DNA from: an uncultured Deinococcales bacterium
GTDB lineage: Bacteria > Deinococcota > Deinococci > Deinococcales > JAAFIG01
DNA length: 31,257 bases
Assembly (NCBI GenBank): GCA_964244895.1
Contig: CAXTKV010000040.1
Span: 1 to 31,257, forward strand
Reading direction: 5' to 3'
In this document: positions 1,376 through 20,096 of the stretch, piece after piece
How positions within the stretch are numbered: the stretch's first letter is position 1
Layout: each line of letters opens with the position of its first letter
Made by a program: the position numbers and the translations under genes
The notes under the pieces: model-generated
Seen by the model: the letters and a program-made list of their open reading frames with translations, nothing else
Database searches by the model: none
What the model was told of the DNA's origin: nothing

Positions 1376-1383
1376 TGTTTCAA

Positions 1384-1426: not shown

Positions 1427-1455
1427 CGTATTCCCATCGCTCGAGCTGTTCATCG

Positions 1456-1519: not shown

Positions 1520-2069
1520 TCGTGTGGCGCTCGCGCATCTGATCGGGCGTCTGACCCAAGCGCTCGCGCAGCAGGATCGAAACCAGGTCGTAAAACACGA
1601 GTTGCACGGCTTCAAACAGGCTGCCCATCGGCAGCAATCCGCTCGAGGCTCGGTCGTTGGCCATCGTCTGCGCGGGCAGCACGATCACCGCGTCGCAGGA
1701 TTTCGGTACGGCTCCATCGGGTTGGGCTGTGAAGCACAGCGTCCTCGCGCCGGACGCCCTGGCCACACCGACCAGACCCGCGACGGTCGAGAAATTCCCT
1801 GGCCCAGCGCTGACCATCAAAAGGTCGCCCGCTCCAACCGACGGCGTGGTCATGTCCCCGACCACGTGCGCGTCCAGCCCGAGGTGAAAGAGCCTCATGC
1901 AGAGCGCCCGCATCATCAAACCTTCGCGCCCCACGCCGTAGGTCGCGATCCGATGGGCCTTCAAAATTTCGACGAGCAGCGGTTCCGCCATTCCCGGCTC
2001 GAGCCTCGCGAAGACCTCGCCGATCTCGCCGAGCGCCCTCGAACCGAGTTGTGAAATGTCGTCGTTCAC
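1509..2069 (-). CDS. SIS-domain sugar-phosphate isomerase, 6-phospho-3-hexuloisomerase (HxlB/PHI)-like
   Basis: [37 protein letters not shown] and C-terminal HTNLE match PHI family motifs. Confidence 0.85.
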
Positions 2070-2096
2070 GGTTCACTCCAGGTTTTCGCGTCCGCA

Positions 2097-2154
2097 AAGA
2101 CCGTCCAGGACGGTCTTCTTGGGGGCCGGGAAAATGTGTGTCGGACGGTCTTTC
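2097..2154. repeat. REP-like palindromic repeat (perfect copy plus half copy)
   Basis: Perfect 21-nt palindrome AAGACCGTCC-A-GGACGGTCTT at 2097-2117; GGACGGTCTTTC at 2143-2154. Confidence 0.9.
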
Positions 2155-2249
2155 TTCGTGAAACGAGATCGCCCTTCTGGCCTCACGAAACATCGTTGGA
2201 TGGCTCGAGCGCACCGACCTCGCCGCACGCTCGAGCCGAATCCTGAACG

Positions 2250-3611
2250 CTACTGCAGCTTGGGCTTCTTGCCGTCGTAGTACCCGGCCTTGGTCAGGAT
2301 GTCCTTGACTTTGGCGTCTATCTGGGTCGCGCCATCTTTGACGCTGACCTTGCCGAGCATCATCTCGGTGCCGACCTGCGCCACCACCTCAGAGATCGCG
2401 GGCCATTCGGGGAAACGCGGGCGGAAGACGGGGTTGCCCTGGTTCCAGGCTTTGACCATCGGCACGGTGAACGGGAAGGCCTTGGTGATGGCCGGATCCT
2501 TGTAGGCGCTGGTGCGTGCGCTGACGCCACCGGCGCGGACGTAATCCTTGGATTTGGCTTCGGACGTGATCCACTGGATGAACAAGTAGGACGCGGCCTG
2601 TTCCTTCTCGCTCGAGAAGGCGTTGACGCCGTAGCTGAAGCCGCCCAACGCGCCTTTGATGCCGGCTGGCCCCGCCGGTTCGGTGTCGACCGCCAGGCAG
2701 TTGCCGATCTTCGAGGATTTCGGGTCGTTGAGCGTGCCGTTGAAGGCGCTCCACTCGGTGATCATCGCGACTTTGCCCTGCGCCAGGCCGTTGACGGCCT
2801 CGTTGTGGTCGTAGTCCACAATGCCGGGCGGCATGTACTTCAGCAAATCCTGGCGGAACTGCAAGCCCTTCTGGGACGCCGCCGAGAGCAAATTCGGCTC
2901 GAAGGTCTTGGCGTCGATCAGGCTGCCGCCGAACGGCCAGAGCATCCGCATGAAGCTGTCCGCGCTCTGCGTCTCGCCGCGCCGCGACTGCAGGGCGTAA
3001 GCGTACTGGCCCTTCTTGGCGTCGGTCAGTTTGGGCGCGTATTTGGTCATCAATTCGTCCCAGGTTTTGGGCGGCGATTTGAAGCCCGCCTTCTCGAGCA
3101 TGCACCTGTTGTAGAACAGCAATCCGGCGTAGTTGTCGAACGGCAGGCCGTACAGCACCTTGTCCCACGTGCCGAACGAATCCAGCAAAATCGGGAAGAA
3201 GCCGTTCAAATTGAGCGCCGGGTCGGCCAGCTTGGGGTCTTTGGTGAACTTCTCGAGCGGCGTCAGCCAGCCGTTGGCGGCGAACTCACCGACCCAGACC
3301 ACGTCGGTCAGGGCGACATCGTACTCGCCGCCTTTGGCGGTGAAATCGAGCACTTCTTTTTCGCGGGTGTTCTCGTAGGGGATGACTTCGCTCTCGACTT
3401 TGATGCCGGTCAGTTTCTCGAATTCCGGCACCAGCTTTGCGGCGGCCTTGTAGCCGGGGCGATCCAGGTAGACGGCCTTGATGGTCGTGCCCGCGTAGGG
3501 TTTGGCGGCTTCGGCCAGGGTCCACGCGCCCTGCGCGGTGCCGCGCGTGGCCAGCACACCTGCGGCTGTGGCGGCGAGTCCGAGACCGACGACCAGTTTC
3601 CAGTGCTTCAT
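2250..3611 (-). CDS. Sugar/polyol ABC transporter substrate-binding protein
   Basis: Signal peptide; [30 protein letters not shown] motifs of family-1 binding proteins; GGAGG RBS. Confidence 0.93.
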
Positions 3612-3659
3612 GCGAACCTCCTTGGTACTGTGGGACTTGGAGCGACTGCGGCATTGGCG

Positions 3660-3727
3660 CGGTACGTCTTGTGCTGGTCCCTCCTTTCGACACCCTGGCG
3701 GCGCAGTGGCTGCTGTGTTCGCCAGGG
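3660..3727 (-). promoter_or_regulatory. Hairpin + orphan Shine-Dalgarno GAAAGGAGGG + CAAGACGTACCG leader element upstream of the binding-protein gene
   Basis: Stem 3693-3700/3720-3727; GAAAGGAGGG at 3688-3679 with no start codon at RBS distance; CAAGACGTACCG at 3671-3660. Confidence 0.5.
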
Positions 3728-3865
3728 ACTCAGGTTCCGTCGGTGGGCGGTCGGGTGGAGTTTCGGGTCCTCGTGCCTCGAGCGCGCCCGGTTCGAGCGG
3801 TGAGGTTCAAGCGGTATCGTCAGCGACGGGATTCCAAAAGGGCGCGCTGGACGGTGTTCTCGAGG

Positions 3866-4888
3866 TTAGTCGCCGATGTGGATCACGCTCTTGATCACGC
3901 CGTCGCTGCGGTTGGCCTGAAGCACGAACGCTTCCGGCGCGCGCTCGAGGGTGAAGTGGTGGGTGGCGATGGCTCTGATGTCCACGCGTCCGTCCTGGAC
4001 GAGTTTGATCGCGCGAGGGTAGACGTGACCCATGCGGCGCGACATCTTGATGGTCAGTCCCTTGCGCCGCACCTGCGAGGCGGTCAGGGAAAAACCGTTG
4101 CCGTCCGGTATGCCCACCAGCACGACCTTGCCACCGATGCGCGCGACCGTGCAGGCCGCCTCCGGGCCATCGGGCGTATCGGTCGCCTCGAGCACCACGT
4201 CCACGCCGCGGTTGTTGGTGGCGGTTAAGAGCGATTGTGGCGTGTCGTGAGCGCTGTCCGCGCCCAGTTTCAGGGCCAGTTCGCGGCGGTAGCCGATCGG
4301 GTCGAGCGCGTGAACTGCCGCCGCGCCGACCACGCGGGCGAGTTGCACGATCAGCAAGCCGATCGCGCCCGTGCCGACCACGGCGACGCTCGCGCCGAGC
4401 TTGATCTTGGCCAGGTCAATCGCGTGAATCGCGACGCCCAAAGGCTCCAGGAGCGCCGCATCGGCGGCGTCGAAACCGTCGGGCAGCTTGAAAAGCGCGT
4501 CCGGTCTGGCGTCGTAAACCTCGCGCAGCGCGCCCAGCACCGGGGCGGAACCCGCGAATTTAACGTTCGGACAGAGGTTGACCTCGCCGCGCTCGCACCA
4601 TTCGCAGTGCCCGCACGGTTCGGCGGGATCGACGGCCACCAGCGTGCCGCTCGGGAAACCCAGCGCTTCGCCCCGCTCGTCGTCCACGACCGCAGAGAAC
4701 TCGTGCCCGAGGATGAACGGTTCCGTGATCACCGACGAACCGATCGCGCCTTCTTTGTAGTAGTGCAGATCCGAACCGCAGACCGTCACGGCCTGTACGC
4801 GCAAGCGCAGCGCATCGGATCGGGAACCGGGATCGCTCCAGTCGCCGAGGCGCATCGTGCCGGGGCCATCCAGAAATAAGGCTTTCAT
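3866..4888 (-). CDS. Zinc-dependent (MDR) polyol dehydrogenase, sorbitol dehydrogenase-like
   Basis: CGSDLHYY, GHE catalytic-Zn motif, CGHCEWC..C structural Zn site, GTGAIG NAD motif; start moved to ATG 4888 (MKALFLDG) behind a GGAG RBS. Confidence 0.92.
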   Translation of the reverse strand: MKALFLDGPGTMRLGDWSDPGSRSDALRLRVQAVTVCGSDLHYYKEGAIGSSVITEPFILGHEFSAVVDDERGEALGFPSGTLVAVDPAEPCGHCEWCERGEVNLCPNVKFAGSAPVLGALREVYDARPDALFKLPDGFDAADAALLEPLGVAIHAIDLAKIKLGASVAVVGTGAIGLLIVQLARVVGAAAVHALDPIGYRRELALKLGADSAHDTPQSLLTATNNRGVDVVLEATDTPDGPEAACTVARIGGKVVLVGIPDGNGFSLTASQVRRKGLTIKMSRRMGHVYPRAIKLVQDGRVDIRAIATHHFTLERAPEAFVLQANRSDGVIKSVIHIGD

Positions 4889-4976
4889 TTGGGCTCCATT
4901 CGCAAACGAGCCGACAGGGACGCATCGGATCGTCCGGGACGCGATGTAAATCTGGCACGCGAAGTGAGTGGGCGAA

Positions 4977-5744
4977 TCACGCGTTGACCTCCCTCGCTCG
5001 GATGACGCTGACATCGTGCTGCTCGAGGTATCTCGCGGCTTCAACCGATAGTTTCGAGTCGGTGATGATCGTGTGAACGTTGCTGAGCGGCGCGACCAGC
5101 GGCCCCATGACTTTCCCCCACTTGCTGGAATCCGAGACGATCACGGTCTTGCGCGCGGCCCGCAGCACCTGATGCAGCACGCGCGCCTCGCTTTCCGAAT
5201 AGACCGTCAGGCCGCCCTCGATGTCCATGCCGGTCACGCCGATGAAGGCCAGGTTGATGAACATCCGCTCGATGCTGGCCTCGGCGGCCTCACCGACCAA
5301 CGCTTCGGCGTGGCGTCGCACGCTGCCGCCCGTCAGCACGACCTCGAGTTCGGTGGTGCCCATCAGTTCCTGCGCGATCGGCAAGCTGTTGGTGATGACC
5401 GTCAGCCCTTCTCTGGGCAGCGCCCGCGCGATTTCAGTGGTGGTCGTTCCCGGCGAGAGGTAGATCGTCGCGCCGGGCTGGATCAGGTTGGCGGCGGTTC
5501 TGGCGATGGCCTGTTTTTGCGCGTGCTGCTGCACGATCCGTTCACGGTACGGGGTTTCCTGGACGCCGACGTGCGCCACACCACCGTGCATCTTGCGCAC
5601 CAATCCTTGTTGCTCGAGAAATTGAACATCTCTGTGGATCGTCATTTCGCTGACCCCGAAAGTTTCTGCCAGTTCGGCGATGCGGGCTCGACCGCGTTCG
5701 GCGGTCAGGCTCAACAGTTTTTGACGACGCTCTTCCGCCAGCAC
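4977..5744 (-). CDS. DeoR/GlpR family transcriptional regulator
   Basis: ERRQKLL...VSEMTIHRD HTH, HGG, GTTT, VITNS, SDSSKWG motifs. Confidence 0.95.
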   Translation of the reverse strand: MLAEERRQKLLSLTAERGRARIAELAETFGVSEMTIHRDVQFLEQQGLVRKMHGGVAHVGVQETPYRERIVQQHAQKQAIARTAANLIQPGATIYLSPGTTTTEIARALPREGLTVITNSLPIAQELMGTTELEVVLTGGSVRRHAEALVGEAAEASIERMFINLAFIGVTGMDIEGGLTVYSESEARVLHQVLRAARKTVIVSDSSKWGKVMGPLVAPLSNVHTIITDSKLSVEAARYLEQHDVSVIRAREVNA

Positions 5745-6151: not shown

Positions 6152-7225
6152 CTATATTGGTCGCTTCAACCGCGCCCCGCACGACTGACGGATGACCAGC
6201 GGCGTCTCGACGATCACGTGGCGTTGCGCTGGAACCTGCCCCTGCAACAGTTTCGTCAGGATCTGCACGCCCAGCTCGCCCTGCTCGACCGCCGAAACCT
6301 GAACGGTCGTCAGGGGCGGAATCGTAAAGGCCGCCGTCGGCGTGTCATCGAAACCGACCACGGCGATGTCCTCGGGGATGCGCAGGCCGCGCTGCTGAAT
6401 GGCGGCCATCGCGCCGAGCGCGACCGTGTCGTTGCCCGCGAACACGGCGGTCGGTCGGGATCCGCGTTCGAGCAAGCGCTCCATGGCGTCGAAACCGCTC
6501 TGGGCGCTGTAATTGCCGTACTCGACCAGGCGCGGGTCGTTGGGCAATCCCGCAGACTCGAGGGCGGACAGGTAACCGAGGTGCCGATCCTGCGTGGCGT
6601 GGTACTGCGCGGGCGAGAAGGTCACGTGCGCGATGCGCTCGTGACCCAGACCGATCAGGTGTTCGGTGATTCGGCGTCCGGCGTCTCGGCCATCGGTTCC
6701 GACCGAAGCGGAACGCGCGCCGAGTTCGGCCCAGCCGGGGAAACCCACCAGCACGACCGGGAAATCGCGGGCGATCAGCGCGGGCAGTTGCGTGTCGTCG
6801 GAGCGCGTGTTCAGGACGATCAGCCCATCGATCCGACGCCCGCGCACCAGCTCGTCGTAGGCGTCGGGCCTGGTGACATCCTCGACCGTCTCGAGCAGCA
6901 CGCGGTAGCCGAGCGCGTGGCTGCTGCGGCTGAGGCTGTAGAGCAACTGCGGAATGAACGCGTCCACCTGAAGGTGCTCGGCCTGCGCGACCACCAGCCC
7001 GATCGTGCGCGTCTCGCCGCTGACCAGCATCTGGGCTGCGGCGTTGGGCACGTAACCGAGTTCTTCGGCGGCTTTCAGCACGCGCTCGCGGGTTTCCTGC
7101 CTGATGTTCGCACCCGGCGCGTCGTTCAGCACGAACGAAACCGTGGTTCTCGAGACCCCTGCAAGCTTGGCGACCTGCTGGCTGGTGACGCGTTTGTGCC
7201 TGTCCTGAACGATGTTTTTAACCAC
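6152..7225 (-). CDS. LacI family transcriptional regulator
   Basis: TSQQVAKLAGVSRTTVSFVLN HTH, LGYVPN, IPEDIAVVGFDD, PPLTTV; probable GTG start at 7225 overlapping the end of the upstream GH4 gene (start uncertain). Confidence 0.93.
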   Translation of the reverse strand: MVKNIVQDRHKRVTSQQVAKLAGVSRTTVSFVLNDAPGANIRQETRERVLKAAEELGYVPNAAAQMLVSGETRTIGLVVAQAEHLQVDAFIPQLLYSLSRSSHALGYRVLLETVEDVTRPDAYDELVRGRRIDGLIVLNTRSDDTQLPALIARDFPVVLVGFPGWAELGARSASVGTDGRDAGRRITEHLIGLGHERIAHVTFSPAQYHATQDRHLGYLSALESAGLPNDPRLVEYGNYSAQSGFDAMERLLERGSRPTAVFAGNDTVALGAMAAIQQRGLRIPEDIAVVGFDDTPTAAFTIPPLTTVQVSAVEQGELGVQILTKLLQGQVPAQRHVIVETPLVIRQSCGARLKRPI

Positions 7226-8600
7226 CCATCGCGGTCTGAAGTTCGGCTGTCCGCAGGCTTTCAGGCAGAAAATCACCGTGCGCCGCGATCAGTTCGTCCA
7301 CCAGGCTCTTGATCTGATCCAGGTCGAGTTCCGCCGCCGTGTGTGGATCGAGCATCGCGGCGTGATAGACGTGCTCGCGCTTGCCGGTCAGGGCGGCCTC
7401 GACGGTCAGTTCCTGGACGTTGACGTTGGTGCGCATCATGGCGGCCAGTTGCGGCGGGATGGTGCCGATGCGGGTCGGCTGGATGCCGTTCTCGTCGACC
7501 AGGCATGGCACTTCGACGCAGCAGCCTTGGGGCAGGTTATCGATCAGGCCGTCGTTCAAGACGTTGCCGTAAATCACGCGCGGTTGACCGGTGTGGTGGC
7601 TATGAATGATCAGCGATCCGTACTCGACGCTGCGTTTGACGCTCAAGGGTTCGTCCCCCTCGAGCTTGCGGCGCAACGATTCCCAGCTTTCGATGTTGCG
7701 CTCGCAACGGCGGATGTACTCGTCGATCGGGATGTTGAAACGCGCCAGCAAGTCCGGGCGGTGCGATTTGATGAACCACGGCACGTATTCACTGAAGTGC
7801 TCACTCGATTCGGTCACGGAGTACCCGAAGTGCTTGAAGACCTCGTAGCGCACGTGGTCGGTCAGTCCCCACGGCATGTCGTTGCTGACGCGATGCGTGA
7901 ACTTACCGCGCGCCACGAACTCGCGCACCAACGGGTACAAGTCCTCGCGCCTGCCGTCCTTGTGGTGGCGCTCCAAGGTCAGGTAGAACGCCATGTGGTT
8001 GATGCCCGCCACCAGGTAATGGACTTCCTCGGGTGGCACGCCGATGTCCTGCGCGATCTCCTTGGCGGTGTGCGGCACGCTGTGGCACAAACCCACGACC
8101 TTGATCGGGCTGGCTTTGGAAAGTGCCCAGGTGTTGATCGCCATCGGGTTGACGTAATTCAGGTGCAGCACGTCCGGGCAGACGCGCTCCATGATGCGCG
8201 TGTAAGCCAGCAAGACCGGCACCGTGCGCAAGCCGCGCATGATCCCGCCGATCCCGAGCGTGTCGGCGATGGTCTGCTGCAAACCGTACTTTTTGGGAAT
8301 CTCGAAATCGATCACGGTGGACGGTTTGTAACCGCCGACCTGAATCATGCTGATGGCGTAATCCGCGCCCTCGAGCGCGCGCTCAGCGTCGGTGCTGACG
8401 GTGATTTTGGGGTTGACACCGAGCGCCTGCGTGATCTTGCGCGCCACGATCTCCGATGTCCGGAGGCGTTCCGGATCGATGTCGAAAAGCGTGATGTGCG
8501 CGTTCTCGAGTTCCGGGTAGCTCAGGATGTCGCCCATCAGGTTCTTGGCGAAGACCGTGCTGCCCGCGCCGATCAAGGTAATTTTGGGTGCGTTGCTCAT
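7218..8600 (-). CDS. melA: Family 4 glycoside hydrolase, NAD+/Mn2+-dependent alpha-galactosidase (MelA-like)
   Basis: KITLIGAGSTVF, QTIADTLGIGG, NYVNPM, GLCHSV, AGINHMAF, TESSEHFSEYVPWF, LDPHTAA motifs. Confidence 0.9.
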   Translation of the reverse strand: MSNAPKITLIGAGSTVFAKNLMGDILSYPELENAHITLFDIDPERLRTSEIVARKITQALGVNPKITVSTDAERALEGADYAISMIQVGGYKPSTVIDFEIPKKYGLQQTIADTLGIGGIMRGLRTVPVLLAYTRIMERVCPDVLHLNYVNPMAINTWALSKASPIKVVGLCHSVPHTAKEIAQDIGVPPEEVHYLVAGINHMAFYLTLERHHKDGRREDLYPLVREFVARGKFTHRVSNDMPWGLTDHVRYEVFKHFGYSVTESSEHFSEYVPWFIKSHRPDLLARFNIPIDEYIRRCERNIESWESLRRKLEGDEPLSVKRSVEYGSLIIHSHHTGQPRVIYGNVLNDGLIDNLPQGCCVEVPCLVDENGIQPTRIGTIPPQLAAMMRTNVNVQELTVEAALTGKREHVYHAAMLDPHTAAELDLDQIKSLVDELIAAHGDFLPESLRTAELQTAMGG

Positions 8601-8767: not shown

Positions 8768-10873
8768 TCACGGAGCGCCCGACTCACCGACGCGCCGAAT
8801 TCGCAATACCGCGCTTCCAAAATCCGAGAGCGCCACCTCGAGCCCGACGTGCATCCAGGCCGCGCCGGAGCGCGCACCGACGACACCGTCGACCGTGTAC
8901 AACGCATCCGTCTCGAGCCCGCGCAATTTCAGGGGCGCCAGCAACTCTGGGTCGGGGATGTGCGTGCGGAACGCGAACACGACGCCCTCGGATTTGTCTT
9001 TGCTAACGTACATCAACCCCGAAAAGGCTGACTCGAACACGGAACGCAGCCGGTACTGGTCTCCGGACTGCACCACGGGTCGGATCGATTTGTAGAGCGC
9101 GATCAATCGTTTGGCCTCGAGCCGTTCAGATTCCGACCAGTGCAGCAAATTCGCGCCCACGCCCAGCACGCCCGCCATCGAGACGTGAAAGCGGAACTCG
9201 AGCGGCAGGTGCTTCGGACCCATGTCCGTGACCCAGGCCTCCATCGTGCTGGCTGGAAAGAGTTGGGAAAACCCCTCCTGGATGCGCAAGCGCATGGTCG
9301 GTTCCGTCATGTCGCTCGCCCAGATCTGATCGGCGAATCGCAAAATGCCCAGGTCTGCCCGACCGCCGCCGCCGGAGCAACTCTGCCAGGTGACGTTCGG
9401 GTGCCGCTCGCGCAGCGCGCCCCAGACGCGGTACAGACCCTCGACGTAGCGCACCCAGAGGGATTTGGGTTCGCTGTTTTCCATCCAGCCGGGCTCAGAG
9501 ACGTTGCGGTTCATGTCCCATTTGATAAAACGAATGTTGTTGCGTGCCAGCAGGTTGTCAATCGAGCCGATCAGGTACTCCTGCACGTCCTTGCGCGCCA
9601 GGTTCAGGATCAGTTGGTTGCGAGATTCCGTGCGCGAGCGCGTCGGGAAGTGAATCACCCAATCCGGGTGCGCGCGGTACAGGTCGGAATCCGGGTTGAC
9701 CATCTCCGGCTCGAGCCACAGCCCGAAATCCATGCCGAGCCCGTTGACGTGTGCGATGAGCGCCCCCAGACCGTTCGGGAATTTGTGCTCGTCCGGCCAC
9801 CAATCGCCCAAGCCCGCGTCGTCGCTCTTGCGCCCGTGAAACCAGCCGTCGTCCAGCACGAACAGTTCCACGCCCATCCCGGCAGCAATTTCTGCGAGTT
9901 CTTTCTGAGATGATTCGTTGACATCGAAGATCGTGGCTTCCCACGAGTTGTACAGAACCTTGTGCGGGGCGTTCCCGTGCGGCAGGATCGTCTGGCGCAC
10001 GAAATCGTGCATGGTGCGGCTGGCTTTGCCGAAACCCGCGCTCGAGAACCCTGCGATGCTGGCTGGGCTCGTGAACTGCGTTCCCGGCTCGAGCCTGATG
10101 GCGGAATCCCAATCGTTCAACCCGATGTTGAGGCGCGTGCTGCCGAAGACCGTGACCTCCGCCGTGAGCTTCCAGTTGCCGCTCCAACTCAATGCCCCGA
10201 ACCAGACTTCACCCGCGTCCTCGCTGGCCTGCGATCCGGGCGCTGCGCGATCCACCGCGAACCACGGGTTGTGCTGGTGGCTGGTCGTCAAGCGCCGGGA
10301 TTCCACCACCTTCAAACCTGAAGTCAAGGGATCGCGGTGAATCTGCGTCTCCTTGAACCACGCGCCCGCCAGGTGCGTCAGACGGTACGCCTGGTGCAGC
10401 GGCAAGTGCCACTGGGCTGAAAACACCCGCTCGAGCGTGACGGGCGCATCGCCGTCGTTGTGAACCGTGACGAAGCGTTCCAGCAGATCGTAAGCCTCGT
10501 GGACGCGGTAGTGCAGCGTCACTCGAACCGGGTAGTGCGCGTCGCGCAGCTGAATCCGCAACTCGTTCTCGATCGATTCAGCCGACTCGAACTCGAGCAC
10601 CACGTCCCGAACGCCGTCCGGGAAGGTGATTTTCAGGCACGGATCGATGTATTTGGTGCCCGCGTAGCCGGGGTATTCCTCCGGCACGATCTCGCCGGGA
10701 CCGTTGAACGACGCCCAACCGATCGAGTCCATCGCGGGCGGGTAATCATCTGGCCGGGGAAGCTTTGCCCCCCAGTACCGGTGCGTCAGCACACCGCCGG
10801 CGTTCAGCCCGAGGGCGTAAGCGGTCTCGCGGGTCTCGAGAACCCAACCTGAAGATGTGGAGTGAATCGGCAT
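8768..10873 (-). CDS. GH36 alpha-galactosidase
   Basis: LYNSWEA, FVLDDGWF, FGLWLEPEMV, KWDMNR, CSGGGGR, WASD motifs; start set to ATG 10873 (MPIH) downstream of GGAGG. Confidence 0.93.
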   Translation of the reverse strand: MPIHSTSSGWVLETRETAYALGLNAGGVLTHRYWGAKLPRPDDYPPAMDSIGWASFNGPGEIVPEEYPGYAGTKYIDPCLKITFPDGVRDVVLEFESAESIENELRIQLRDAHYPVRVTLHYRVHEAYDLLERFVTVHNDGDAPVTLERVFSAQWHLPLHQAYRLTHLAGAWFKETQIHRDPLTSGLKVVESRRLTTSHQHNPWFAVDRAAPGSQASEDAGEVWFGALSWSGNWKLTAEVTVFGSTRLNIGLNDWDSAIRLEPGTQFTSPASIAGFSSAGFGKASRTMHDFVRQTILPHGNAPHKVLYNSWEATIFDVNESSQKELAEIAAGMGVELFVLDDGWFHGRKSDDAGLGDWWPDEHKFPNGLGALIAHVNGLGMDFGLWLEPEMVNPDSDLYRAHPDWVIHFPTRSRTESRNQLILNLARKDVQEYLIGSIDNLLARNNIRFIKWDMNRNVSEPGWMENSEPKSLWVRYVEGLYRVWGALRERHPNVTWQSCSGGGGRADLGILRFADQIWASDMTEPTMRLRIQEGFSQLFPASTMEAWVTDMGPKHLPLEFRFHVSMAGVLGVGANLLHWSESERLEAKRLIALYKSIRPVVQSGDQYRLRSVFESAFSGLMYVSKDKSEGVVFAFRTHIPDPELLAPLKLRGLETDALYTVDGVVGARSGAAWMHVGLEVALSDFGSAVLRIRRVGESGAP

Positions 10874-11082: not shown

Positions 11083-12465
11083 CTACGCTCGGATGCCGAT
11101 TGAAGAATCCGAGCGGCTCGCGAATTCTGGCAGCCATTGGGCTTCAGCCTGGATCATCTCGTCGACCATGGCGTGGATGTCGGTCAGGGTCAACAAGCTT
11201 GCGGTCAATGGATCGAGCATCACGGCGTGATAGACGTGTTCTAGATTCCCGGTCAGGGCGGCCTGAACGGCCAGTTCCTGAACGTTGATGTTGGTGCGGT
11301 TGATGGCGGCGCACTGCGGGGGCAACGAGCCCACCACGGTCGGCTGAAGGCCGTTCGCATCCACCAGACACGGGACTTCCACGCAGCATCCGTCCGGTAA
11401 ATTCTTGATCAGACCATCGTTCGGGACATTGCCGTAAATCACGCGCGGCTGTCCGGTTTCCACGCTGTGAATAATCTGTGCGCCGTACTCGAGCGATGGC
11501 TCGAGGCGTGTTTTCAAACGCGCCAGCAGTTCATCCAGGCTGGTTTCGTCGTGGGCGGAGCAGACCTCGAAGTAATCCCAGCGCTCCGGGATCAAGGCTT
11601 CGATCAGTTGCGGATTCTTGCGGAAGTACGGCGTGTACTCCGAGGCGTGATGGCTGGATTCCGTATTGAAGTATCCGAAAGCCGCCATCAGTTCCGCCCG
11701 GACGCGCTCCTGCGCGCCCTCGTAGACGGAAGCTTTGCGATCCGCACCGCTGTGATCGCCGCGATCAGCCTCGAGTCGCCTCTCGCCCTGTGCACCCATG
11801 AATCGCTGCGTCACGACCTCGCGCATGCGCGGCAGCAAATCGGTTTTCCCGTGCCAAAATTCCAGAAACCACGATTGATGGTTGATGCCCGCCGACAGGT
11901 AACGCACTTCGCCGTAAGGCACCTGGAGTTGCTCGGCCAGCATCCGCGACGTGCCCTGCACGCTGTGGCACAACCCGACCGTCCTGATGCCCAGGCTCGA
12001 GAGGTACCAGCAGGCCATCGCCATCGGGTTGGCGTAATTGATCAGAAGCGCCCCTGGGCAGACTTCGAGCATGTCCGCCGCGATCTCGCGGTAGGCGGGG
12101 GCGGAGCGCAGAAAACGGAATACGCCTCCCGGCCCGAGCGTGTCACCGACCGTCTGGTCGAGGCCGTAGCTGCGCGGAATCTCGACATCGTGGCGGTACG
12201 CCTCGAGCCCGCCGACCTGGAAGGTCACGATCACGTAGTCGGCGCGCACCAGGGCTGCACGCCTTTCGGCGGTGGTTTCGATCCGCGTCGGCAGTCCGTG
12301 GTGCGCCACCAGTTCGCGGGCTGCCCTGGCCGTGCGATCCAGCGTGAATGGGTCGATGTCCATCAGCGAAAGCGTGGCATCCTGAAGTTCCGAAAAACTC
12401 AGGATGTCACCGATCAGGCGCAGAGGAAAGACGAATCCTCCAGCTCCGATGATGGCAATTTTCAC
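11083..12465 (-). CDS. Second family 4 glycoside hydrolase (alpha-galactosidase/alpha-glucosidase-like)
   Basis: KIAIIGAGG, QTVGDTLGPGG, NYANPM, GLCHSVQG, AGINHQSW, TESSHHASEY, LDPLTA; GTG start at 12465 overlaps the upstream TGA. Confidence 0.9.
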   Translation of the reverse strand: MKIAIIGAGGFVFPLRLIGDILSFSELQDATLSLMDIDPFTLDRTARAARELVAHHGLPTRIETTAERRAALVRADYVIVTFQVGGLEAYRHDVEIPRSYGLDQTVGDTLGPGGVFRFLRSAPAYREIAADMLEVCPGALLINYANPMAMACWYLSSLGIRTVGLCHSVQGTSRMLAEQLQVPYGEVRYLSAGINHQSWFLEFWHGKTDLLPRMREVVTQRFMGAQGERRLEADRGDHSGADRKASVYEGAQERVRAELMAAFGYFNTESSHHASEYTPYFRKNPQLIEALIPERWDYFEVCSAHDETSLDELLARLKTRLEPSLEYGAQIIHSVETGQPRVIYGNVPNDGLIKNLPDGCCVEVPCLVDANGLQPTVVGSLPPQCAAINRTNINVQELAVQAALTGNLEHVYHAVMLDPLTASLLTLTDIHAMVDEMIQAEAQWLPEFASRSDSSIGIRA

Positions 12466-13226
12466 GTCCGCGATCCTTTCGCGTTCTGCGCCCGGATCAG
12501 ACGCGGCAGGGATTCTCGAGCGGCCAGCAGCAACAAGCTCATCTCGCCGAGGTTCCAGTAGAAGTGAATTGCCACGCGCGGCAAGCTGGTCAAGCCCGGA
12601 ATGCCGCGACAGATCAGCAGGTTGTTGGCCAGCCAACCGTCGCGCCCCAGGATGCCCGGTAGCACCTGAGCCGCGCCGAACTGCGGCAGGCCGAGCGCAC
12701 CGAGTTCGGCGGCGACGTGCAGGTAATGGATCAGCATGTAGGTGTGCTCCAAGCTGTGCAGCGTCACCCAGGCCAGCAGCGGATAACCCCACAGGCCCGT
12801 CATGCCGTTGCGCACCAGGTAAACGATGCAGCTCCAGGCCAGCCAGTTCCAGATGAAGTGCACCCATTCGACGTTCAGGCTCGAGATCAATCCCTGCGAT
12901 TCGATGCCGGGACGGTTGAAGACGTAAAACTGCATCAGTTGCACGACGTGCTCAACCGTGTGAAAACCCTGCAGCGCCAGCAGCACGCTCAGCACACAGG
13001 CCGCCGCGCCCCAGGCGATCAGGTCATCGCGCCACTTCAAGGAGGCCGGTACCGCAATCACGCCCAGAAAAATCAGCGTCCCGCCCCAGGTCGGCAGTCC
13101 AGCGCGCGTGACGGCCACACCGGCCAGCAGCAATCCAGCGCAGGCGGCTGCCGCGAACAACGCGGTTCGGCTGCGGAGCCGGAGCAAATCAAACAAGGAC
13201 GGTTTGCGCTCGAGTCGAAGGCTCAT
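12462..13226 (-). CDS. Uncharacterised integral membrane protein with duplicated HxxEH...HFxWN motifs (254 aa)
   Basis: ATG 13226 overlaps the upstream TGA (ATGA); several hydrophobic helices; motifs FHTVEH, VHFIWN, LHSLEH, IHFYWN. Confidence 0.8.
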   Translation of the reverse strand: MSLRLERKPSLFDLLRLRSRTALFAAAACAGLLLAGVAVTRAGLPTWGGTLIFLGVIAVPASLKWRDDLIAWGAAACVLSVLLALQGFHTVEHVVQLMQFYVFNRPGIESQGLISSLNVEWVHFIWNWLAWSCIVYLVRNGMTGLWGYPLLAWVTLHSLEHTYMLIHYLHVAAELGALGLPQFGAAQVLPGILGRDGWLANNLLICRGIPGLTSLPRVAIHFYWNLGEMSLLLLAARESLPRLIRAQNAKGSRT

Positions 13227-14917
13227 GGTTTGCGCCCGTCGCGCGTCAGCCTGAGAATCGTGTCGGTTCTGGGCTGAAGGAACTTGGTTTGGGCGCCGTC
13301 CGGCCAGGTCACCTCGAGCCAATCGAGCGTCGCGCTTTCGGGTGCGCCGAAGTGAACCCGTGGGTCTTCGCCGGAAAGGTAACCGCCCTGGCTGCGCACC
13401 TCGCGCTGCAACGTGCCCGCGTTTGAACCGATACTGGTGTGCAGCTTGATGGTCGAGCCGATCGCCCTGGTGTTGCGCGTGCCGGGCCACTCGAGTTCGA
13501 CCTCCAGGCTCCGCCCGCCGCAGACTCGGTTCTCGAAGACTTGCGCGGGGCTGTTGACGTTGTTGACCACGATGTCCAAACGCCCGTCGTTGTTCAAGTC
13601 CGCCATGCTCATGCCGCGCCCGCTCGAGATCGAATTGAGTTTCCAATCGGGTTCGGGTTGAAATCGCCCGAAGGAATTGCTGAAGACCTTGTTCGATTCG
13701 ACCAGTTCGTGATGCGGCAGATACTTCAAGTTTTCCTTGTCGATCATGCCGTTGACGACGTACAGATCCTCGAAGCCGTCGTTGTTCAGATCGCCGAATT
13801 TTGCCGACCAGCTCCAGCCGGTCGCGTCGATGCCCAGATCGTAGGCGACGTTCTGAAAGCCGCCATCTTTTGTGCGCCGTTGCAACACGTTCTCGGCGCG
13901 TTGAATGCTGGCATATTGAAGTTTCTCGTAGGTTTTTTCCATGAACGGCATCCACTTGGCCAGCACTTTGACATCGTCGAACTTCGGTTTCATGTCGGTC
14001 GCAAAAAGCTCTAAACTGCCGTCGTTGTCGGTATCGGCCACGGAGAATCCCATCGTGTTCTTGGTGATGCGTTTGAACGGACTGACTTTCTTCCAGCCGC
14101 CCGGTTTGTTCAGCCAAAAGAAGTCCGGCACGGTGAAATCGTTTCCCACGATCAGGTCGCGGCGACCGTCGCCGTCGATGTCGAACATCGCCATCGCCAG
14201 CGACTGCGAGCTGTTCCACAACCGCTCTTGCTTGTACGCGCCGTCGGTGGGTGTGTACACGACCACGCCGCCGCCGTTCGAGAACAGAAAGCTTTTGTTT
14301 TCTTCCTCGAGAATCGCGTCGTAAGAGGCCGTCACCAAGTCGAGATTGCCGGTTCCGCCCAGGTCATCCCAGAGCATCGTGAAGGCCGGAAACGAGGCGC
14401 TGGTCAGGGTGCGCGGCCTGAAATGCTGGTGATGGTCGTTGGTGAACACGCTGATTCCGCCCTCTGTGTTGGTGAACGCGATGTCGAGCCAGCCGTCGGC
14501 GTTCTCGTCCACCAGCGCCACGGCGCGCGTCTGCGTTTCTGGCAGACCGAACGCGTTCGTGAGCGTCTCGGCGCGGAACTTGAAATCGCCTTCGTTCCAC
14601 TGAATCGTGCTCGGCCCAGCCAGATTCCCGAGCACGACCTCCGGCAGACCGTCACCGTCGAGATCACCGACGGCCACGCCGGAACCGTTGCCGTCGTAGA
14701 CGCTGCCCTCACCGCCCCTCGGGATGGTCGTGTGCGTGAGCGCGTGCTCGAGGAAATTTCCCGTGCATGCAGCGCTCGGGCTGAAGGCAGTGGCCCTCAG
14801 GCTGGCCGAAACCTGGCGGGCGGGCGCTCGAGGCGAGCTGGACGATTCACCGCGCGCGACGCAGGCGGCCAGCAGAAGTAGGCTGGAGGACATCAATACG
14901 GACAGTGTGGTGTTCAT
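13223..14917 (-). CDS. CRTAC1-like lipoprotein with FG-GAP/VCBS repeats and ASPIC/UnbV C-terminal domain
   Basis: Lipobox-like LLAAC; repeats GDLDGDG, DENADGWLD, DIDGDGRRD, DTDNDGSLE, DLNNDGFED, DLNNDGRLD; C-terminal NTRAIG...GGYLSG..RVHFG...VTWPDG. Confidence 0.88.
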   Translation of the reverse strand: MNTTLSVLMSSSLLLLAACVARGESSSSPRAPARQVSASLRATAFSPSAACTGNFLEHALTHTTIPRGGEGSVYDGNGSGVAVGDLDGDGLPEVVLGNLAGPSTIQWNEGDFKFRAETLTNAFGLPETQTRAVALVDENADGWLDIAFTNTEGGISVFTNDHHQHFRPRTLTSASFPAFTMLWDDLGGTGNLDLVTASYDAILEEENKSFLFSNGGGVVVYTPTDGAYKQERLWNSSQSLAMAMFDIDGDGRRDLIVGNDFTVPDFFWLNKPGGWKKVSPFKRITKNTMGFSVADTDNDGSLELFATDMKPKFDDVKVLAKWMPFMEKTYEKLQYASIQRAENVLQRRTKDGGFQNVAYDLGIDATGWSWSAKFGDLNNDGFEDLYVVNGMIDKENLKYLPHHELVESNKVFSNSFGRFQPEPDWKLNSISSGRGMSMADLNNDGRLDIVVNNVNSPAQVFENRVCGGRSLEVELEWPGTRNTRAIGSTIKLHTSIGSNAGTLQREVRSQGGYLSGEDPRVHFGAPESATLDWLEVTWPDGAQTKFLQPRTDTILRLTRDGRKP

Positions 14918-14950: not shown

Positions 14951-14997
14951 GAAGACCGTCCAGGACGCAATCAAAATTCGCGCACCGGACGGTCTTC
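14951..14997. repeat. REP/MITE-like unit with 11-bp perfect terminal inverted repeats
   Basis: GAAGACCGTCC (14951-14961) ... GGACGGTCTTC (14987-14997), 8 nt after the binding-protein stop codon. Confidence 0.88.
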
Positions 14998-15005
14998 ACG
15001 AATGT

Positions 15006-16346
15006 TTACTTGAAGAGCGCGTTGACTTTCGTGTTCGCTTCTTTCAGCACGTCCTTGGCCTGAGCATCGCCGAGGAAGATCCGGTCGAGGGCTTTTTGCA
15101 TGATGTCGCCGATTTCACCCGCGTTATCGGTGATCGGAAAGAGGAAGGTCGTGTTCTTGGCGAGCGCTTCCTTGGTGAAGGCACTGACATCCAAGCCCTT
15201 GCTCTTGTAGCTGGCGAGCGCCTTGTTGACCGCGCTCGGGATGGCCGGGAAGACCACGCCGAAGCCGCCGACGACGTCCTGACAGGCGGCGGTGCCCATG
15301 TACTTCAGCCACTGCCAGGCTTCTTTTTGCTTTTTCGAGCCGACCCAGATCGAGTCCGCCAGACCGTTGAACATCGTCTTGCGACCCGCCGGGCCGACGG
15401 GCAATTGCGCGAAGCCGATGTCGGCTTTGGTGTTGCCCTTGTAGGTGGAGATCATCCACGAGCCGTCGAAGATCATGGCGACCTTACCCGCGAAGAACAG
15501 GTTGTTGGCGGCGCTGGCCTTGGTGTCCTTGTAGAGGGGAGCATAGCCCTTTTTCAAGCTGATGTCGGCCTGCCACTGCAAGGATTCCGCCAGCTTCGGG
15601 TCGTCGTAGTTGTACTTGGTTGCCCACGGGCCTTCGTTGAATTTGAAGCCGTTGGAAACCGCGAAGTGGCTCCATTCCGTCTGACCGTACGCGCCGCCGG
15701 AGCTGTTGCCGGGCAGGCTGGCCCAGCCGAAGGTCTTCACTTTCGTCTTGTCGAACTTCGGGCTGTCGCCACGGTTGCCGTTCTCGTCGACGGTCAGCTT
15801 GGCCATGATCTTCTCGAAGCTGCCGCCGTTCTTCGGGTTCCAGCTCATCGAGGCCAAGCTGGTTTCGCTGACGCCTGCTTCCTTGAGGAGCGCCTTGTTG
15901 TAGACGATGGCGACCGTGTCCCAGTCTTTAGGCAGACCGTACTGCTTGCCGTTCTTGCCCCAGAGTTTGAAAAGATCACCCGTGTAGATGTCCGTTGGTA
16001 CCTTGTCTTCCTTGATCAAGGGCGCAATATCCACGATCTGCTGGTTGTTGGCGAATTCCGGGTACTTGGCCAGGTGGTCGGTGAAGATGTCCGGCGCGGT
16101 GCCCGAGATAAAACCGGTGGTGATGCCCGTCCAGTAGTCGTCCCAGCCCTTCTGGATGACGTTGACCTTGATGCCTGGGTTGGCTTTGGAGAAGTTGTCC
16201 GCGCACTGTTTGTAGGCGGGTTCCTGGTTGGAATCCCACAGCCAGTAGTTGATTTCGACCGGGCTTTGCGCTTGCGTGGTCGTGACGAGCGCGATGCCGA
16301 TGGCGGCGAGCGCCGAGCCGAGGACGACGAGTTGCTTGGTTTTCAT
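15006..16346 (-). CDS. Sugar ABC transporter substrate-binding protein (probably alpha-galactoside, from context)
   Basis: Signal peptide; FSKANPGIKV, GTAPDIF, QYGLPKD, IVYNKALL, GKVAMIFDGSW motifs; GGAGG RBS. Confidence 0.93.
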   Translation of the reverse strand: MKTKQLVVLGSALAAIGIALVTTTQAQSPVEINYWLWDSNQEPAYKQCADNFSKANPGIKVNVIQKGWDDYWTGITTGFISGTAPDIFTDHLAKYPEFANNQQIVDIAPLIKEDKVPTDIYTGDLFKLWGKNGKQYGLPKDWDTVAIVYNKALLKEAGVSETSLASMSWNPKNGGSFEKIMAKLTVDENGNRGDSPKFDKTKVKTFGWASLPGNSSGGAYGQTEWSHFAVSNGFKFNEGPWATKYNYDDPKLAESLQWQADISLKKGYAPLYKDTKASAANNLFFAGKVAMIFDGSWMISTYKGNTKADIGFAQLPVGPAGRKTMFNGLADSIWVGSKKQKEAWQWLKYMGTAACQDVVGGFGVVFPAIPSAVNKALASYKSKGLDVSAFTKEALAKNTTFLFPITDNAGEIGDIMQKALDRIFLGDAQAKDVLKEANTKVNALFK

Positions 16347-16570: not shown

Positions 16571-17494
16571 TTACTTGCCGCCGCTGAACTGCAGCGATTC
16601 GATCACCTGACGCCCGAGCACGATCAGCAGAATGAAGATCGGAACGATGCTGATGAAGGTTCCGGACATCAATGCCGTCCAGTCGGGTGGCCCCGACGGC
16701 TGGTTGGCCTTGAACTGCTGGAGCGCCACCGACAGCACGCGCAGGTTCGTGTCGGAAGCGGAATTGACGATGAACGGCCAGAAGAATTCGTTCCACATGT
16801 TGATCGAGGTCAGGATCCCGAGCGTGGCGATCGGGCCGCGCGCCAACGGCAGCACAATCCGCCAGAAGATGAAGGCCGGTGAGGCTCCGTCCAGCCGCGC
16901 CGCTTCCTCGAGTTCCAGGGGCACGCTCAGGAAAAACTGTCGCAAGAAGAACACCGCGAACGGCGTCATCAGCACGTACGGCGCGACCATGCCCTGAAAG
17001 GTGTTCAACCAGCCCAGGTTCTTGACCAGAATGAAATTCGGGATGAACAGCACGATCCCCGGAATCATCATGGCCGAGAGGATCATCACGAACAAGACGT
17101 TTCTACCGGGGAATTTCAATCGCGCGAAGGCGTAGGCGGCCATCGCGCTGAAGACGATCTGCCCGGACACGCAGACGATCACGAACAGCAAGGAATTCTT
17201 GATCGCCAATAAGAAGTTCGCGGTTTCCGCATTGACGCCTTCTGCCTGGGCGGCTTCCTGACTGACCAGGCCCATGACCCGCCCGAAGTTGAACAGCGTC
17301 GGGTTGGCGGGCAGCAGGTTGGCTGCCGTGGAGGCCAGATCCTTGTGGCCCGTCAGCGCGGTTTTCAGCACGTAATACACGGGGAATACAGACACGAAAA
17401 TGCACAGCGCCATCATCGTCCAGGCGGCAGCCCGACCCGGATTGAAGGCTTTGGTGGATCTCGTCCTCGAGACGGGAGCGGTGGCGGTCGTCAT
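16571..17494 (-). CDS. Carbohydrate ABC transporter permease (MalG-type)
   Basis: AAYAFARLKFPGR, LRQFFLSVPLELEEAARLDGA EAA loop, WNEFFWP. Confidence 0.94.
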   Translation of the reverse strand: MTTATAPVSRTRSTKAFNPGRAAAWTMMALCIFVSVFPVYYVLKTALTGHKDLASTAANLLPANPTLFNFGRVMGLVSQEAAQAEGVNAETANFLLAIKNSLLFVIVCVSGQIVFSAMAAYAFARLKFPGRNVLFVMILSAMMIPGIVLFIPNFILVKNLGWLNTFQGMVAPYVLMTPFAVFFLRQFFLSVPLELEEAARLDGASPAFIFWRIVLPLARGPIATLGILTSINMWNEFFWPFIVNSASDTNLRVLSVALQQFKANQPSGPPDWTALMSGTFISIVPIFILLIVLGRQVIESLQFSGGK

Positions 17495-17512: not shown

Positions 17513-18448
17513 TCAGGCGAGATCGGACTGGTCGGCGCGGAACAGGCGAAGCTGAACGATCGAAAAGAAAATCAAGATCGCGAACAGCGTCATGGACAGC
17601 GCCGTGGCGTAACCCATCTTGAAGAAGGTGAAGGCATTGCTGTAGATGTAGAAGACCAGCACGCGCGTGGCGTCGATCGGGCCTCCGGCGGTCGTGACGG
17701 CGATCGTGTCGAAAATCTGGAACGAACCCACGATGCTCGTGACCAACACGAAAACCGTGACTGGACGAAGGAGCGGTAACGTGATGCGCCAGAAGGTCGT
17801 CCACTCGCTCGAGCCGTCGATGGTCGCGGCCTCGTAGACGGATTTCGGGATGCCCTGTAAACCGGCGTAGAACAAGAGCGCCGTCAGACCCGAGTGCCGC
17901 CAGATGTTGATCGCGGCGATGGTCGGTAGCGCCAGTTGCGGTGACCCGAGGAAAGACTGGTGCGGCACGCCGAACCAGCTCAGGAACGAATTGACGATGC
18001 CCAGCAGCGGATCGAGCATCCAGGTGAAGATCATCGCGGCGATCACGTTCGAGATCAGGTACGGCAGGATCAGCGCGCCGCGCACGAACATGGATTTGGT
18101 CAACCGATCCATGGCCACGGCCAGGAACAACCCGATCACCGTCTGGATCGGGATGTTCATGATCACGTACAGAAAAGTGGTTTTGAGCGCGTTCCAGAAC
18201 GCCGGATCGGCCAGCATCGTCTTGTAATTCTCGAGCCCCACGAAGGTCGGTTCCCGAAGGAGGTTCCAGTTGGTCGTGCTGATCCACAGGCCGCGCAGGG
18301 TCGGGTACAGGTAAAAGAGTGCAAAGCCCACCATGCACGGCAGGATGAACAACCAGGCCGTCACGGTTTCCGCGTTGACGATCTTCCGCCACGGGTTCTG
18401 CGCGGTCGTCGGGAGCTGGGTTTGCCGGTACGCCGTATCCGTGTTCAT
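17513..18448 (-). CDS. Carbohydrate ABC transporter permease (MalF-type)
   Basis: FVGLENY, AGLQGIPKSVYEAATIDG EAA loop, FQIFD, TAGGP; start set to ATG 18448 behind GGAGG. Confidence 0.94.
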   Translation of the reverse strand: MNTDTAYRQTQLPTTAQNPWRKIVNAETVTAWLFILPCMVGFALFYLYPTLRGLWISTTNWNLLREPTFVGLENYKTMLADPAFWNALKTTFLYVIMNIPIQTVIGLFLAVAMDRLTKSMFVRGALILPYLISNVIAAMIFTWMLDPLLGIVNSFLSWFGVPHQSFLGSPQLALPTIAAINIWRHSGLTALLFYAGLQGIPKSVYEAATIDGSSEWTTFWRITLPLLRPVTVFVLVTSIVGSFQIFDTIAVTTAGGPIDATRVLVFYIYSNAFTFFKMGYATALSMTLFAILIFFSIVQLRLFRADQSDLA

Positions 18449-18937: not shown

Positions 18938-19927
18938 TCAACCCTGAAGGATCGCCTCTAACCCTTGCAACTCGTCATCGGCGAAGTGCAGACCCTCTAA
19001 CGCACCCACCGCATCGTCAATCTGCTCGATCCGGCTCGCGCCGATCAGCGCGGACGTGATTTCCGGGTGGCGCAAGACCCAGGCCAGCGCCATCTGCGCC
19101 AGCGTCTGACCCCTTTTCTGCGCCAGATCGTTCAGGCGCCGAACCTTCTCGAGTTTTTCATCTGTGACGTGTTCCGGCCTCAGGTACCCGTGCGCCTTCG
19201 ATGCCCTCGAACCCGTCGGGATGCCCGAGAGGTACTTGTCGGTCAGCAAGCCCTGCTCCAAGGGTGAGAACGCGATGCCGCCGATGCCCTCCTAGCGCAG
19301 TGCGTCCAGCAGGCCGTCCTCGACCCAACGGTCAAACATGCTGTAGCGCGGTTGGTGAATCACGCAAGGCGTGCCGAGCGCCTTCAGGATGCGGGACGCC
19401 TCACGGGTGCGTTCGGCGGGGTAATTCGAGATGCCTACGTAGAGCGCCTTGCCGCTCCTGACGATCTGATCGAGCGCCCCCATGGTCTCTTCCAGCGGCG
19501 TGTTCGGATCGGGGCGGTGGTGATAAAAAATGTCCACGTACTCGAGCCCCATGCGTTTCAGGCTCTGATCGAGGCTGGCGATCAGGTACTTGCGGGAACC
19601 CCATTCCCCGTAAGGGCCGGGCCACATCAGGTATCCGGCCTTGCTGGAAATAATCAATTCGTCGCGGAACGCGCCCAAATCGTCGCGCAGGAGCTTTCCG
19701 AAGGTCTCCTCGGCGCTGCCGGGCGGCGGGCCGTAATTGTTGGCCAGGTCGAAATGCGTGATGCCCAGATCGAAAGCGCGGCGCACCATCGCCCGCGCGT
19801 CCTCGAGGCGATCCACGCCGCCGAAGTTGTGCCACAACCCCAATGAAATGGCCGGGAGTTTCAGCCCGGAATGGCCGCTGTTGCGGTACTGCATCGCGTC
19901 GTACCGCGCGTCTGACGGTGAGTACAC
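18938..19927 (-). pseudogene. Aldo/keto reductase (L-glyceraldehyde 3-phosphate reductase YghZ/MgrA-like) interrupted by an in-frame TAG at 19292-19294
   Basis: SLGLWHNFG, FDLANNYGPPPGSAE, SKAGY.MWPGPYG, HQPRYSM, then LLDALR*EGIGGIAFSPLEQGLLTDKYL continues in the same frame to 18938; GTG start at 19927 behind GAGGGGG. Confidence 0.85.
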
Positions 19928-20096
19928 GTGAACCCCCTCAAAAACCCTGAACGTGCGTTGAGGCACGAGCGTAACACGCGCCGATCCGGGTGATTGCGCG
20001 AGACAGAATAGGAATTCAGGCGATTGAACCGCAGCCCTCCGGGCTCGAGTCGCGGCGACAATAGGCCAACCCCGAACACCGCGCGAATGCTGGAAT

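Follow-up and report, generated by a model that had tools for sequence, protein, structure and literature searches.

Gene content of the locus

The window analysed here is a 31,257-nucleotide stretch of the genome of an uncultured Deinococcales bacterium (GCA_964244895.1, contig CAXTKV010000040.1, positions 1 to 31,257), and close relatives of the locus studied also carry the label Deinococcales. Its subject is a pair of adjacent minus-strand genes, encoding an exported CRTAC1/UnbV-type propeller protein of 564 amino acids (13223..14917) and an unnamed membrane protein of 254 amino acids (12462..13226), that lie inside a sugar-import operon. In transcriptional order, the minus strand encodes two ATP-binding cassette (ABC) permeases with Pfam domain BPD_transp_1 (17513..18448, the first gene of the operon, and 16571..17494), a CUT1 substrate-binding protein (SBP; 15006..16346; SBP_bac_1, supported by an orthologue survey), the propeller, the membrane protein, a glycoside hydrolase family 4 (GH4) alpha-galactosidase (11083..12465), a GH36 alpha-galactosidase (8768..10870), a second GH4 alpha-galactosidase (7218..8600) and a LacI-family regulator (longest open reading frame 6152..7276, with the true start probably slightly downstream). 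Both GH4 proteins exceed the NCBIfam alpha-galactosidase cut-off of 486 bits (578 and 663 bits). The copy that follows the membrane gene is divergent, being 47% identical to the second, and it is the second that is the orthologue (60-83%) of the GH4 found after the membrane gene in most relatives.

The original prediction, made from the letters alone, had described a lipobox, six repeats and an ASPIC/UnbV tail in the propeller protein, a 254-amino-acid membrane protein between it and the first GH4 gene, and a chain of 4-nucleotide overlaps. Translation, motif scanning and Pfam searches bore out each of these features, and the overlaps are present in the sequence as ATGA at 13223-13226 (propeller and membrane genes) and GTGA at 12462-12465 (membrane and GH4 genes). 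The two reading frames are not chance products, as they have 194 and 1391 database relatives and a G+C content at third codon positions (0.80-0.82) like that of their neighbours (0.76-0.87).

The propeller protein

The propeller reading frame, running from 14917 to 13223, begins with MNTTLSVLMSSSLLLLAAC. Pfam assigned FG-GAP_3 to six stretches (E 2.6e-36; 124.5 bits against a cut-off of 26.9) and UnbV_ASPIC to residues 485-555 (E 4.5e-17; 62.1 bits against a cut-off of 23.4). Six strict Dx[DN]xDG motifs (residues 85, 137, 246, 295, 376 and 440) are joined by a degenerate seventh at 185, and the structure model (predicted local distance difference test, pLDDT, 92.5) predicts a seven-repeat calcium-blade beta-propeller followed by the ASPIC/UnbV C-terminal domain, with the motif loops as putative Ca2+ sites. 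Integrins, a fungal lectin, a rhamnogalacturonan lyase and GPI-phospholipase D all have propellers of the calcium-blade type (PMC3123361), hence the fold permits both binding and catalysis.

The lipobox LAAC occupies residues 16-19 (14861..14872, minus strand) and varies between lineages, with a plain signal peptide in many homologues. A lipobox pattern was matched in 40 of 109 propeller homologues and a hydrophobic N-terminus was present in 84, suggesting that export is conserved across the family and lipidation is not; a lipid anchor was accordingly rejected as a family trait. Residues C51 and C466, by comparison, form a Cys pair conserved in 108 and 109 of the 109 homologues. Among 57 propellers with the membrane partner, near-invariant positions (N77, R131, S198-Y199-D200, N259-D260, D308-M309, W368, W370, N389 and R434) flank the first two strands of each repeat, lying immediately ahead of strand one and past strand two, where we infer that they form a pocket on the conserved polar/aromatic top face. 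Substitutions on this face at positions 75, 200, 238, 310 and 342 follow the class of the neighbouring ABC system in the same 57 proteins. As a separate observation, a second CRTAC1/UnbV gene in one surveyed locus (L003; G000:C14:32308-33963), about 29% identical to the window propeller, has no His-motif partner; the gene after it encodes a membrane GGDEF protein, and another sugar ABC system lies about 4.5 kb away.

The membrane protein and its predicted metal site

The 254-amino-acid protein matched no Pfam or NCBIfam family and no PDB sequence. Foldseek returned nothing for its model at E <= 0.001, and a VIA fold search gave no clear fold match (best Z 9.6, to designed bundles). The model (pLDDT 95.3) comprises two N-terminal helices and a four-helix core, which is a duplicated helical hairpin bearing HxxEH...HFxWN twice, with homologous halves (hhalign 94%, E 2e-8) and each motif on one helix face. 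Conservation was followed in 60 sequences spanning the whole family at about 25% identity. The first HxxEH motif (H89, E92, H93; 12948..12962) is kept in 58, 58 and 56 of these, ExxHFxWN (E120, H123, N127; 12846..12869) in 59, 55 and 49, the second HxxEH (H157, E160, H161; 12744..12758) in 59, 60 and 59, and HFxWNxGE (H221, N225, E228; 12543..12566) in 58, 56 and 32, E228 being confined to some branches; all four lie on the minus strand. The six His together with E92, E120 and E160 are thus each retained in 55-60 of the 60, and in 104 of 104 close homologues Q86, H89, E92, H93, Q96, E120, H123, N127, H157, E160, H161, H221 and E228 are invariant.

Some relatives have cytoplasmic cyclic nucleotide-binding (cNMP) domains fused to the C-terminus of the membrane domain, and all 14 propeller fusions read carry a twin-arginine motif between membrane core and propeller, which together indicate that the core ends inside the cell and that the His/Glu cluster faces outwards. 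The predicted topology is N-in and places the cluster in the half of the bilayer nearer the outside; precedents for dual Sec-Tat membrane proteins exist (PMC5449189). This arrangement is most naturally read as a non-haem two-metal site, and the protein very probably binds metal. It looks like a member of an unnamed metal-site family present in Deinococcota, Chloroflexota, Actinomycetota and one cyanobacterial plasmid, and this family may itself be new.

Linkage of the pair to sugar-import systems

Neighbourhoods were surveyed for the best 80 of 237 GTDB hits, with the unpublished genomes G768 and G815 left out of all neighbourhood work. The propeller gene lay directly upstream of the membrane gene in 63 of 71 loci with at least 1 kb of upstream sequence. 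The gap between the two was an estimated 4-nucleotide overlap in 20 of 67 cases and at most 30 nucleotides in 40. Of the 57 pair loci for which 4.5 kb or more of upstream sequence was available, 54 held a CUT1 permease. For comparison, about 8-9% of the window genome is no more than 6 kb away from a permease of this kind, an approximate control given that the loci reach up to 10 kb. Where at least 1.5 kb of downstream sequence was available, 48 of 59 loci carried a glycosidase somewhere (GH4 in 31, GH36 in 6, GH100-like in 6, GH2 in 5, GH65 in 2, GH29 in 1 and GH31 in 1).

In Deinococcota genomes, all 25 strong membrane-protein hits had an adjacent propeller gene. An even sample of Chloroflexota yielded a family member in 38 of 401 genomes; five of six newly fetched close-type loci from this phylum contained the propeller, and in three a GT-C glycosyltransferase took the place of the glycosidase after the pair. 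The pair is conserved in three phyla, and natural fusions of the membrane domain with an UnbV propeller exist. Linkage of the two genes to each other and to sugar ABC genes in other taxa, which the original prediction had made one of its tests, was thus upheld by the adjacency counts, the permease counts, the fusions and the joint gain and loss described below, and the two proteins are likely to be physical partners.

Two further kinds of neighbourhood were observed. A PMT_2 (GT-C) glycosyltransferase follows or flanks the pair or fusion in L351, L306, L307, L035 and L364, with a GT2 also present in L351, hinting at lipid-linked sugar chemistry. In L019, L026 and L020 sulfate-activation genes (PAPS_reduct, APS kinase/GTPase) precede the pair and a GH100-like hydrolase comes after it, and in some of these three a HicB-like gene stands between the propeller and membrane genes.

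Recurrence of the membrane domain in unrelated sugar systems

The association with sugar import recurs outside the close relatives. The membrane domain is fused to FG-GAP and ASPIC/UnbV domains in the database proteins P0327, P0370 and P0371, and one genome (G572) encodes six membrane-propeller fusions, four of which have sugar-binding proteins, permeases, GH2, GH4 or PhyH encoded in the same locus. The propellers of these fusions are 27-29% identical to the window propeller, and their binding proteins 21-24% identical to the four SBP classes of the pair loci. A beta-helix/membrane fusion stands right after a MalK-type sugar ABC system in seven of seven fetched loci from two phyla. Propeller and beta-helix fusions form separate branches on a 60-row tree of the membrane family, and approximately unbiased (AU) tests rejected a single clade (p 0.001 and 4e-6) for groups that were chosen after the first tree had been seen, on a quick LG+G4 tree. 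At least three separate branches of the family were recruited to unrelated sugar ABC systems. A shared-word search, which is weak, found no longer fused forms; the fusions came from other searches.

Several observations accompany these distant members. In L372-L378 the NosD-like beta-helix and membrane-domain fusion ends a MalK-SBP-permease-permease operon near which no glycosidase was seen. Each of the genomes G572 (L362-L367), G596 and G628 encodes five to six paralogues of the membrane-propeller fusion in which four membrane helices precede an internal twin-arginine motif, and these proteins are candidates for a new dual Sec-Tat membrane protein family. Their loci abound in PhyH dioxygenases, GH2 enzymes, four tandem permeases and flavin-dependent (FAD) halogenase-like genes. 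In L318, L320, L348 and L077 the membrane domain is fused or adjacent to DUF2330 and followed by a xylose-isomerase-like TIM barrel gene, and in L156, L157, L158 and L160 short relatives have SARP/STAND (BTAD) regulators and an unnamed exported protein, about 250 amino acids long, as neighbours.

Substrate range and dispensability

The original prediction placed the pair in galactoside metabolism, and this specificity was rejected. The nearest binding proteins of the pair loci fall into four classes at most 33% identical to one another (two singletons having been assigned manually to classes 0 and 1), and the neighbouring enzymes also include GH100-like, GH2, GH29, GH65 or GT-C types. Binding-protein class changes three times on the propeller tree and six times on the membrane-protein tree. 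A galactolipid-deacylase idea was likewise set aside, the GH100-like and GH2 loci giving no pointer to lipids.

Orthologues of the window binding protein occur in 64 of 364 Deinococcota genomes. At their 67 loci the next gene was the propeller in 24, GH4 in 31, GH36 in 4, another gene in 5 and could not be read in 3, leaving 40 of 64 scorable operons without the pair; a role as an essential uptake subunit was rejected on these grounds. Presence of the pair changes nine times on the SBP tree (65 rows, two short sequences having been left out), even between the sister species G171 and G172, and in G335 one in-frame deletion takes away the C-terminal half of the propeller together with most of the membrane gene. 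The pair is gained and lost as a unit, and this pattern of presence and absence marks it as optional.

Proposed role and competing explanations

We propose that the pair forms an optional, putative metalloenzyme at the cell surface and chemically alters some glycosides ahead of their import, a reading to which we give somewhat less than an even chance. Under this proposal the exported propeller would hold a glycoside at the surface, the predicted two-metal His/Glu centre of the membrane protein would carry out the chemistry that makes it importable, and the ABC system would import the product for the glycosidase to complete its breakdown. Only a small share of the substrates of the operon would be acted on by the pair, the cassette widening the diet rather than enabling uptake. 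In the proposed site each metal would be bound by an i,i+4 His pair and a His from the next helix, with two bridging Glu, in a di-iron-like arrangement. Redox chemistry at such a site is modestly favoured over Zn-type hydrolysis because the set of ligands looks like two half-sites of hemerythrin, and because the UnbV protein E4 of enediyne pathways is paired with an RnfD-like membrane protein. More ambitiously, the 254-amino-acid protein may found a superfamily of bilayer-embedded, two-fold, six-His di-metal enzymes, placing a hemerythrin-like site in the bilayer and repeatedly coupled to exported propeller or beta-helix domains, which with the UnbV propeller would form a surface redox enzyme for glycosides; taken as a whole, we regard this extended reading as doubtful.

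In favour of the proposed enzyme stand the conserved linkage, the presence of the pair beside four SBP classes, the separate recurrence in unrelated sugar systems, the metal-type residues retained across the family, the near-invariant top face of the propeller and the range of functions among calcium-blade propellers. Several observations weigh against an enzymatic role in glycoside import. The locus survey is biased towards close kin, and even there the propeller gene is absent beside the membrane gene in 8 of the 71 loci. In a distant branch none of 80 metagenome loci showed an UnbV propeller neighbour, although many of these loci are short. Several fusion proteins lack one or more of the six His, two of the six G572 fusions lie outside sugar loci, and the AU groups were defined post hoc. 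The class-tracking propeller residues reflect one event per class, so that kinship could explain them. The membrane domain is also promiscuous, being fused or adjacent to cNMP, FHA, NHL, SdrD, DUF2330, YkuD and protease partners, which fits a generic envelope role.

Such a role, in which the pair would mature, load with metal or protect from oxidation an exported partner while sharing the regulation of the operon and never touching sugar, draws on the great diversity of exported partners and contexts, on enediyne clusters in five of five Streptomyces hits, on GT-C neighbours and on the dispensability of the pair in 40 of 64 operons. Recruitment of at least three branches to unrelated sugar ABC systems would be unexpected under such hitch-hiking, and we consider this explanation improbable. 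Non-catalytic capture or sensing is another for which we see only a small chance: the propeller would be a lectin, held by a membrane protein with a structural or signalling metal site, and would raise the local concentration of oligosaccharides around the ABC transporter. Fungal calcium-blade lectins are among the fold matches of the propeller (template-modelling score, TM, about 0.37), its subclades track ABC class, and cNMP and FHA fusions of the membrane domain would suit signalling. Yet a dock would not need the nine metal-type residues that are retained at about 25% identity, the window propeller has a lipid anchor of its own, and no kinase, GGDEF or methyl-accepting chemotaxis (MCP) fusion was found among the 97 distant members scanned.

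The metal site could alternatively belong to a permease with a surface scavenger, supplying Mn or Fe to the enzymes of the operon; GH4 enzymes need Mn and PhyH dioxygenases need Fe. A ladder of His, Glu, Gln and Asn in four membrane helices, GH4 in 31 of 59 loci, PhyH in class-3 and G572 loci and NosD-like fusions are in keeping with transport. The ladder, however, seems to end in the outer half of the membrane, the repeats are parallel rather than inverted, the pair also accompanies GH36, GH31 and GH100-like enzymes, and 31 GH4 operons manage without it, making a permease quite unlikely. Least probable, at a very low level, is a membrane cytochrome that binds haem and works for a surface sugar oxidase. 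The original prediction had allowed for a haem partner, and a His-rich four-helix bundle could accommodate one; b-type cytochromes place bis-His pairs at two membrane depths, whereas the His of the membrane protein form i,i+4 pairs on one helix face, clustered with adjacent Glu at a single predicted depth. No cytochrome b stood out in three fold searches, a result inconclusive by the tool's own note.

If the superfamily reading is true, the locus would give bacterial CRTAC1/UnbV proteins their first function open to experiment and would offer a way into the unexplained enediyne E4 step. Here a CRTAC1/UnbV propeller occurs with a defined partner, few candidate substrates and cultured hosts (Calidithermus roseus, L010), and natural sister operons with and without the pair reduce the question of function to a knockout and an assay. 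Should the pair prove to be only a co-regulated envelope helper, its significance falls to that of a new domain of unknown function (DUF).

Other features of the window

The spacer between the SBP and propeller genes (88 nucleotides) contains a strong hairpin (z -4.2), with an inverted-repeat core at 14955..14993 on neither strand in particular; a hairpin here is usual, with z < -2 in 20 of 27 relatives. It is one of approximately 970 genome copies of an inverted repeat with arms ACCGTCC/GGACGGT and lengths of mainly 15, 40-41 and 50-51 nucleotides, found in the window at 2100, 5983, 10968, 14955, 18862, 23888 and 30725. The repeat is a very abundant element of REP-like (repetitive extragenic palindromic) or MITE-like (miniature inverted-repeat transposable) type, and the hairpin was rejected as a signal specific to the system.

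Upstream of the operon, an aldo-keto reductase gene (L-glyceraldehyde-3-phosphate reductase-like; 18938-19990, minus strand) has its domain split by an in-frame TAG at 19292-19294, indicating either a pseudogene or an assembly error. Beyond the LacI gene lies a second sugar/polyol operon (DeoR, Zn-dehydrogenase, SBP and permease; 347-5744, minus strand). Two tandem Na/Ca-exchanger (CaCA) genes (25079-27510, minus strand) are unlinked to the pair in the relatives examined.

Comparison with known systems

The window operon shares its backbone and gene order with the alpha-galactoside CUT1 operons of Deinococcota (permease-permease-SBP-GH4-LacI), most of which have GH4 directly after the SBP gene; the window cassette is an insert at this SBP-GH4 junction. 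No description of the propeller and membrane pair was found in the open-access literature searched; gene tables in supplements to enediyne papers may name the distant relative.

For the membrane protein, the best named look-alike by language-model features is DUF6008 (PF19471; 0.84-0.85). Of 73 distant members, 7 showed weak similarity to its hidden Markov model (best E 2.1e-5, at most 24.6 bits against a cut-off of 27); the model gave no hit for the window protein itself or elsewhere in its genome. DUF6008 is uncharacterised and was not named in the open-access literature searched. The predicted helix layout and single-face motifs would fit a four-helix bundle with buried His/Glu ligands. Hemerythrin-like di-iron bundles use an i,i+4 His pair and a His from the next helix and are soluble; the match to 3cax, which we take to be a hemerythrin-containing entry, reached Z 8.2 (rmsd, root-mean-square deviation, 3.8; 132 aligned), the highest Z against hemerythrin-like folds, and Z 8 is within the noise for helical bundles. 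LuxS and pitrilysin are HxxEH enzymes as well, but they are soluble, carry one motif rather than two and have unrelated folds.

The Lipocone superfamily (VanZ, YfiM, PTDSS), as portrayed in PMC12419801, offers a four-helix membrane core, an outward polar site and cNMP, FHA and beta-propeller fusions, with a site of one His (H2), Glu (H3) and Asp (H4). His123 and Glu160 could map onto this triad, whereas the H4 Asp has no counterpart: His221 stands at its position, a full HxxEH is present on helix 1, and six His form a two-fold repeat. No Lipocone family appeared in the Pfam scans or among the listed fold matches of the membrane protein, an absence from the list that does not exclude one. Judged against the published triad, membership was rejected on the differing residue pattern.

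Bacterial CRTAC1/UnbV propellers are, to our knowledge, very common, include the E4 protein of every enediyne pathway and have no settled function, which CRTAC1 lacks as well. Murine CRTAC1 (PDB 9ETN; PF13517 and PF07593) has the same domain set as the window propeller, is exported like it, and was its best fold match (TM 0.64 over 543 columns, E 2.9e-24; profile E 2.3e-31). At 17% identity, the window propeller differs in having its own conserved top-face residues, Cys pair and fixed membrane partner.

The enediyne polyketide synthase (PKS) cassette is an organisational parallel: in it an UnbV propeller gene (E4) is coupled to a membrane-protein gene (E5, UnbU). A search with a short membrane-domain relative returned 14 plasmid records, and the relative lay inside an enediyne cluster in five of five annotated Streptomyces hits opened; the copies in Nonomuraea and Geminocystis had no E4 nearby. 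In the C-1027 cluster, WP_010056327.1 lies four genes from E4, matches profile A2 at E 1.7e-26 and keeps all six His, and E4 itself adjoins an RnfD-like membrane protein. E3, E4 and E5 are called genes of unknown function in PMC9992847, and the texts of PMC4480864 and PMC2657911, as far as available, leave the membrane-domain relative without a name. As an observation in its own right, L284:19932-20961, L285:15013-16091 and L287-L290 contain a conserved two-gene unit of a His/Glu membrane domain and a membrane protein of 142-173 amino acids, which borders enediyne clusters, is oriented divergently from the HxlR regulator gene and occurs without E4 in Nonomuraea.

Membership of the enediyne cassette was nevertheless rejected. 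No PKSE, thioesterase or E3 Pfam domains were found in the 28 window proteins or the neighbour clusters scanned, and the membrane protein gave no match to the C-1027 E5 by profiles A1-A3 or BLAST. The window propeller is only 21% identical to E4, and the JGI label 'enediyne biosynthesis protein E4' on its homologues is informative at family level only. The pair is instead a further case of the theme of an UnbV propeller with a membrane partner, of which E4 and E5 are the enediyne example.

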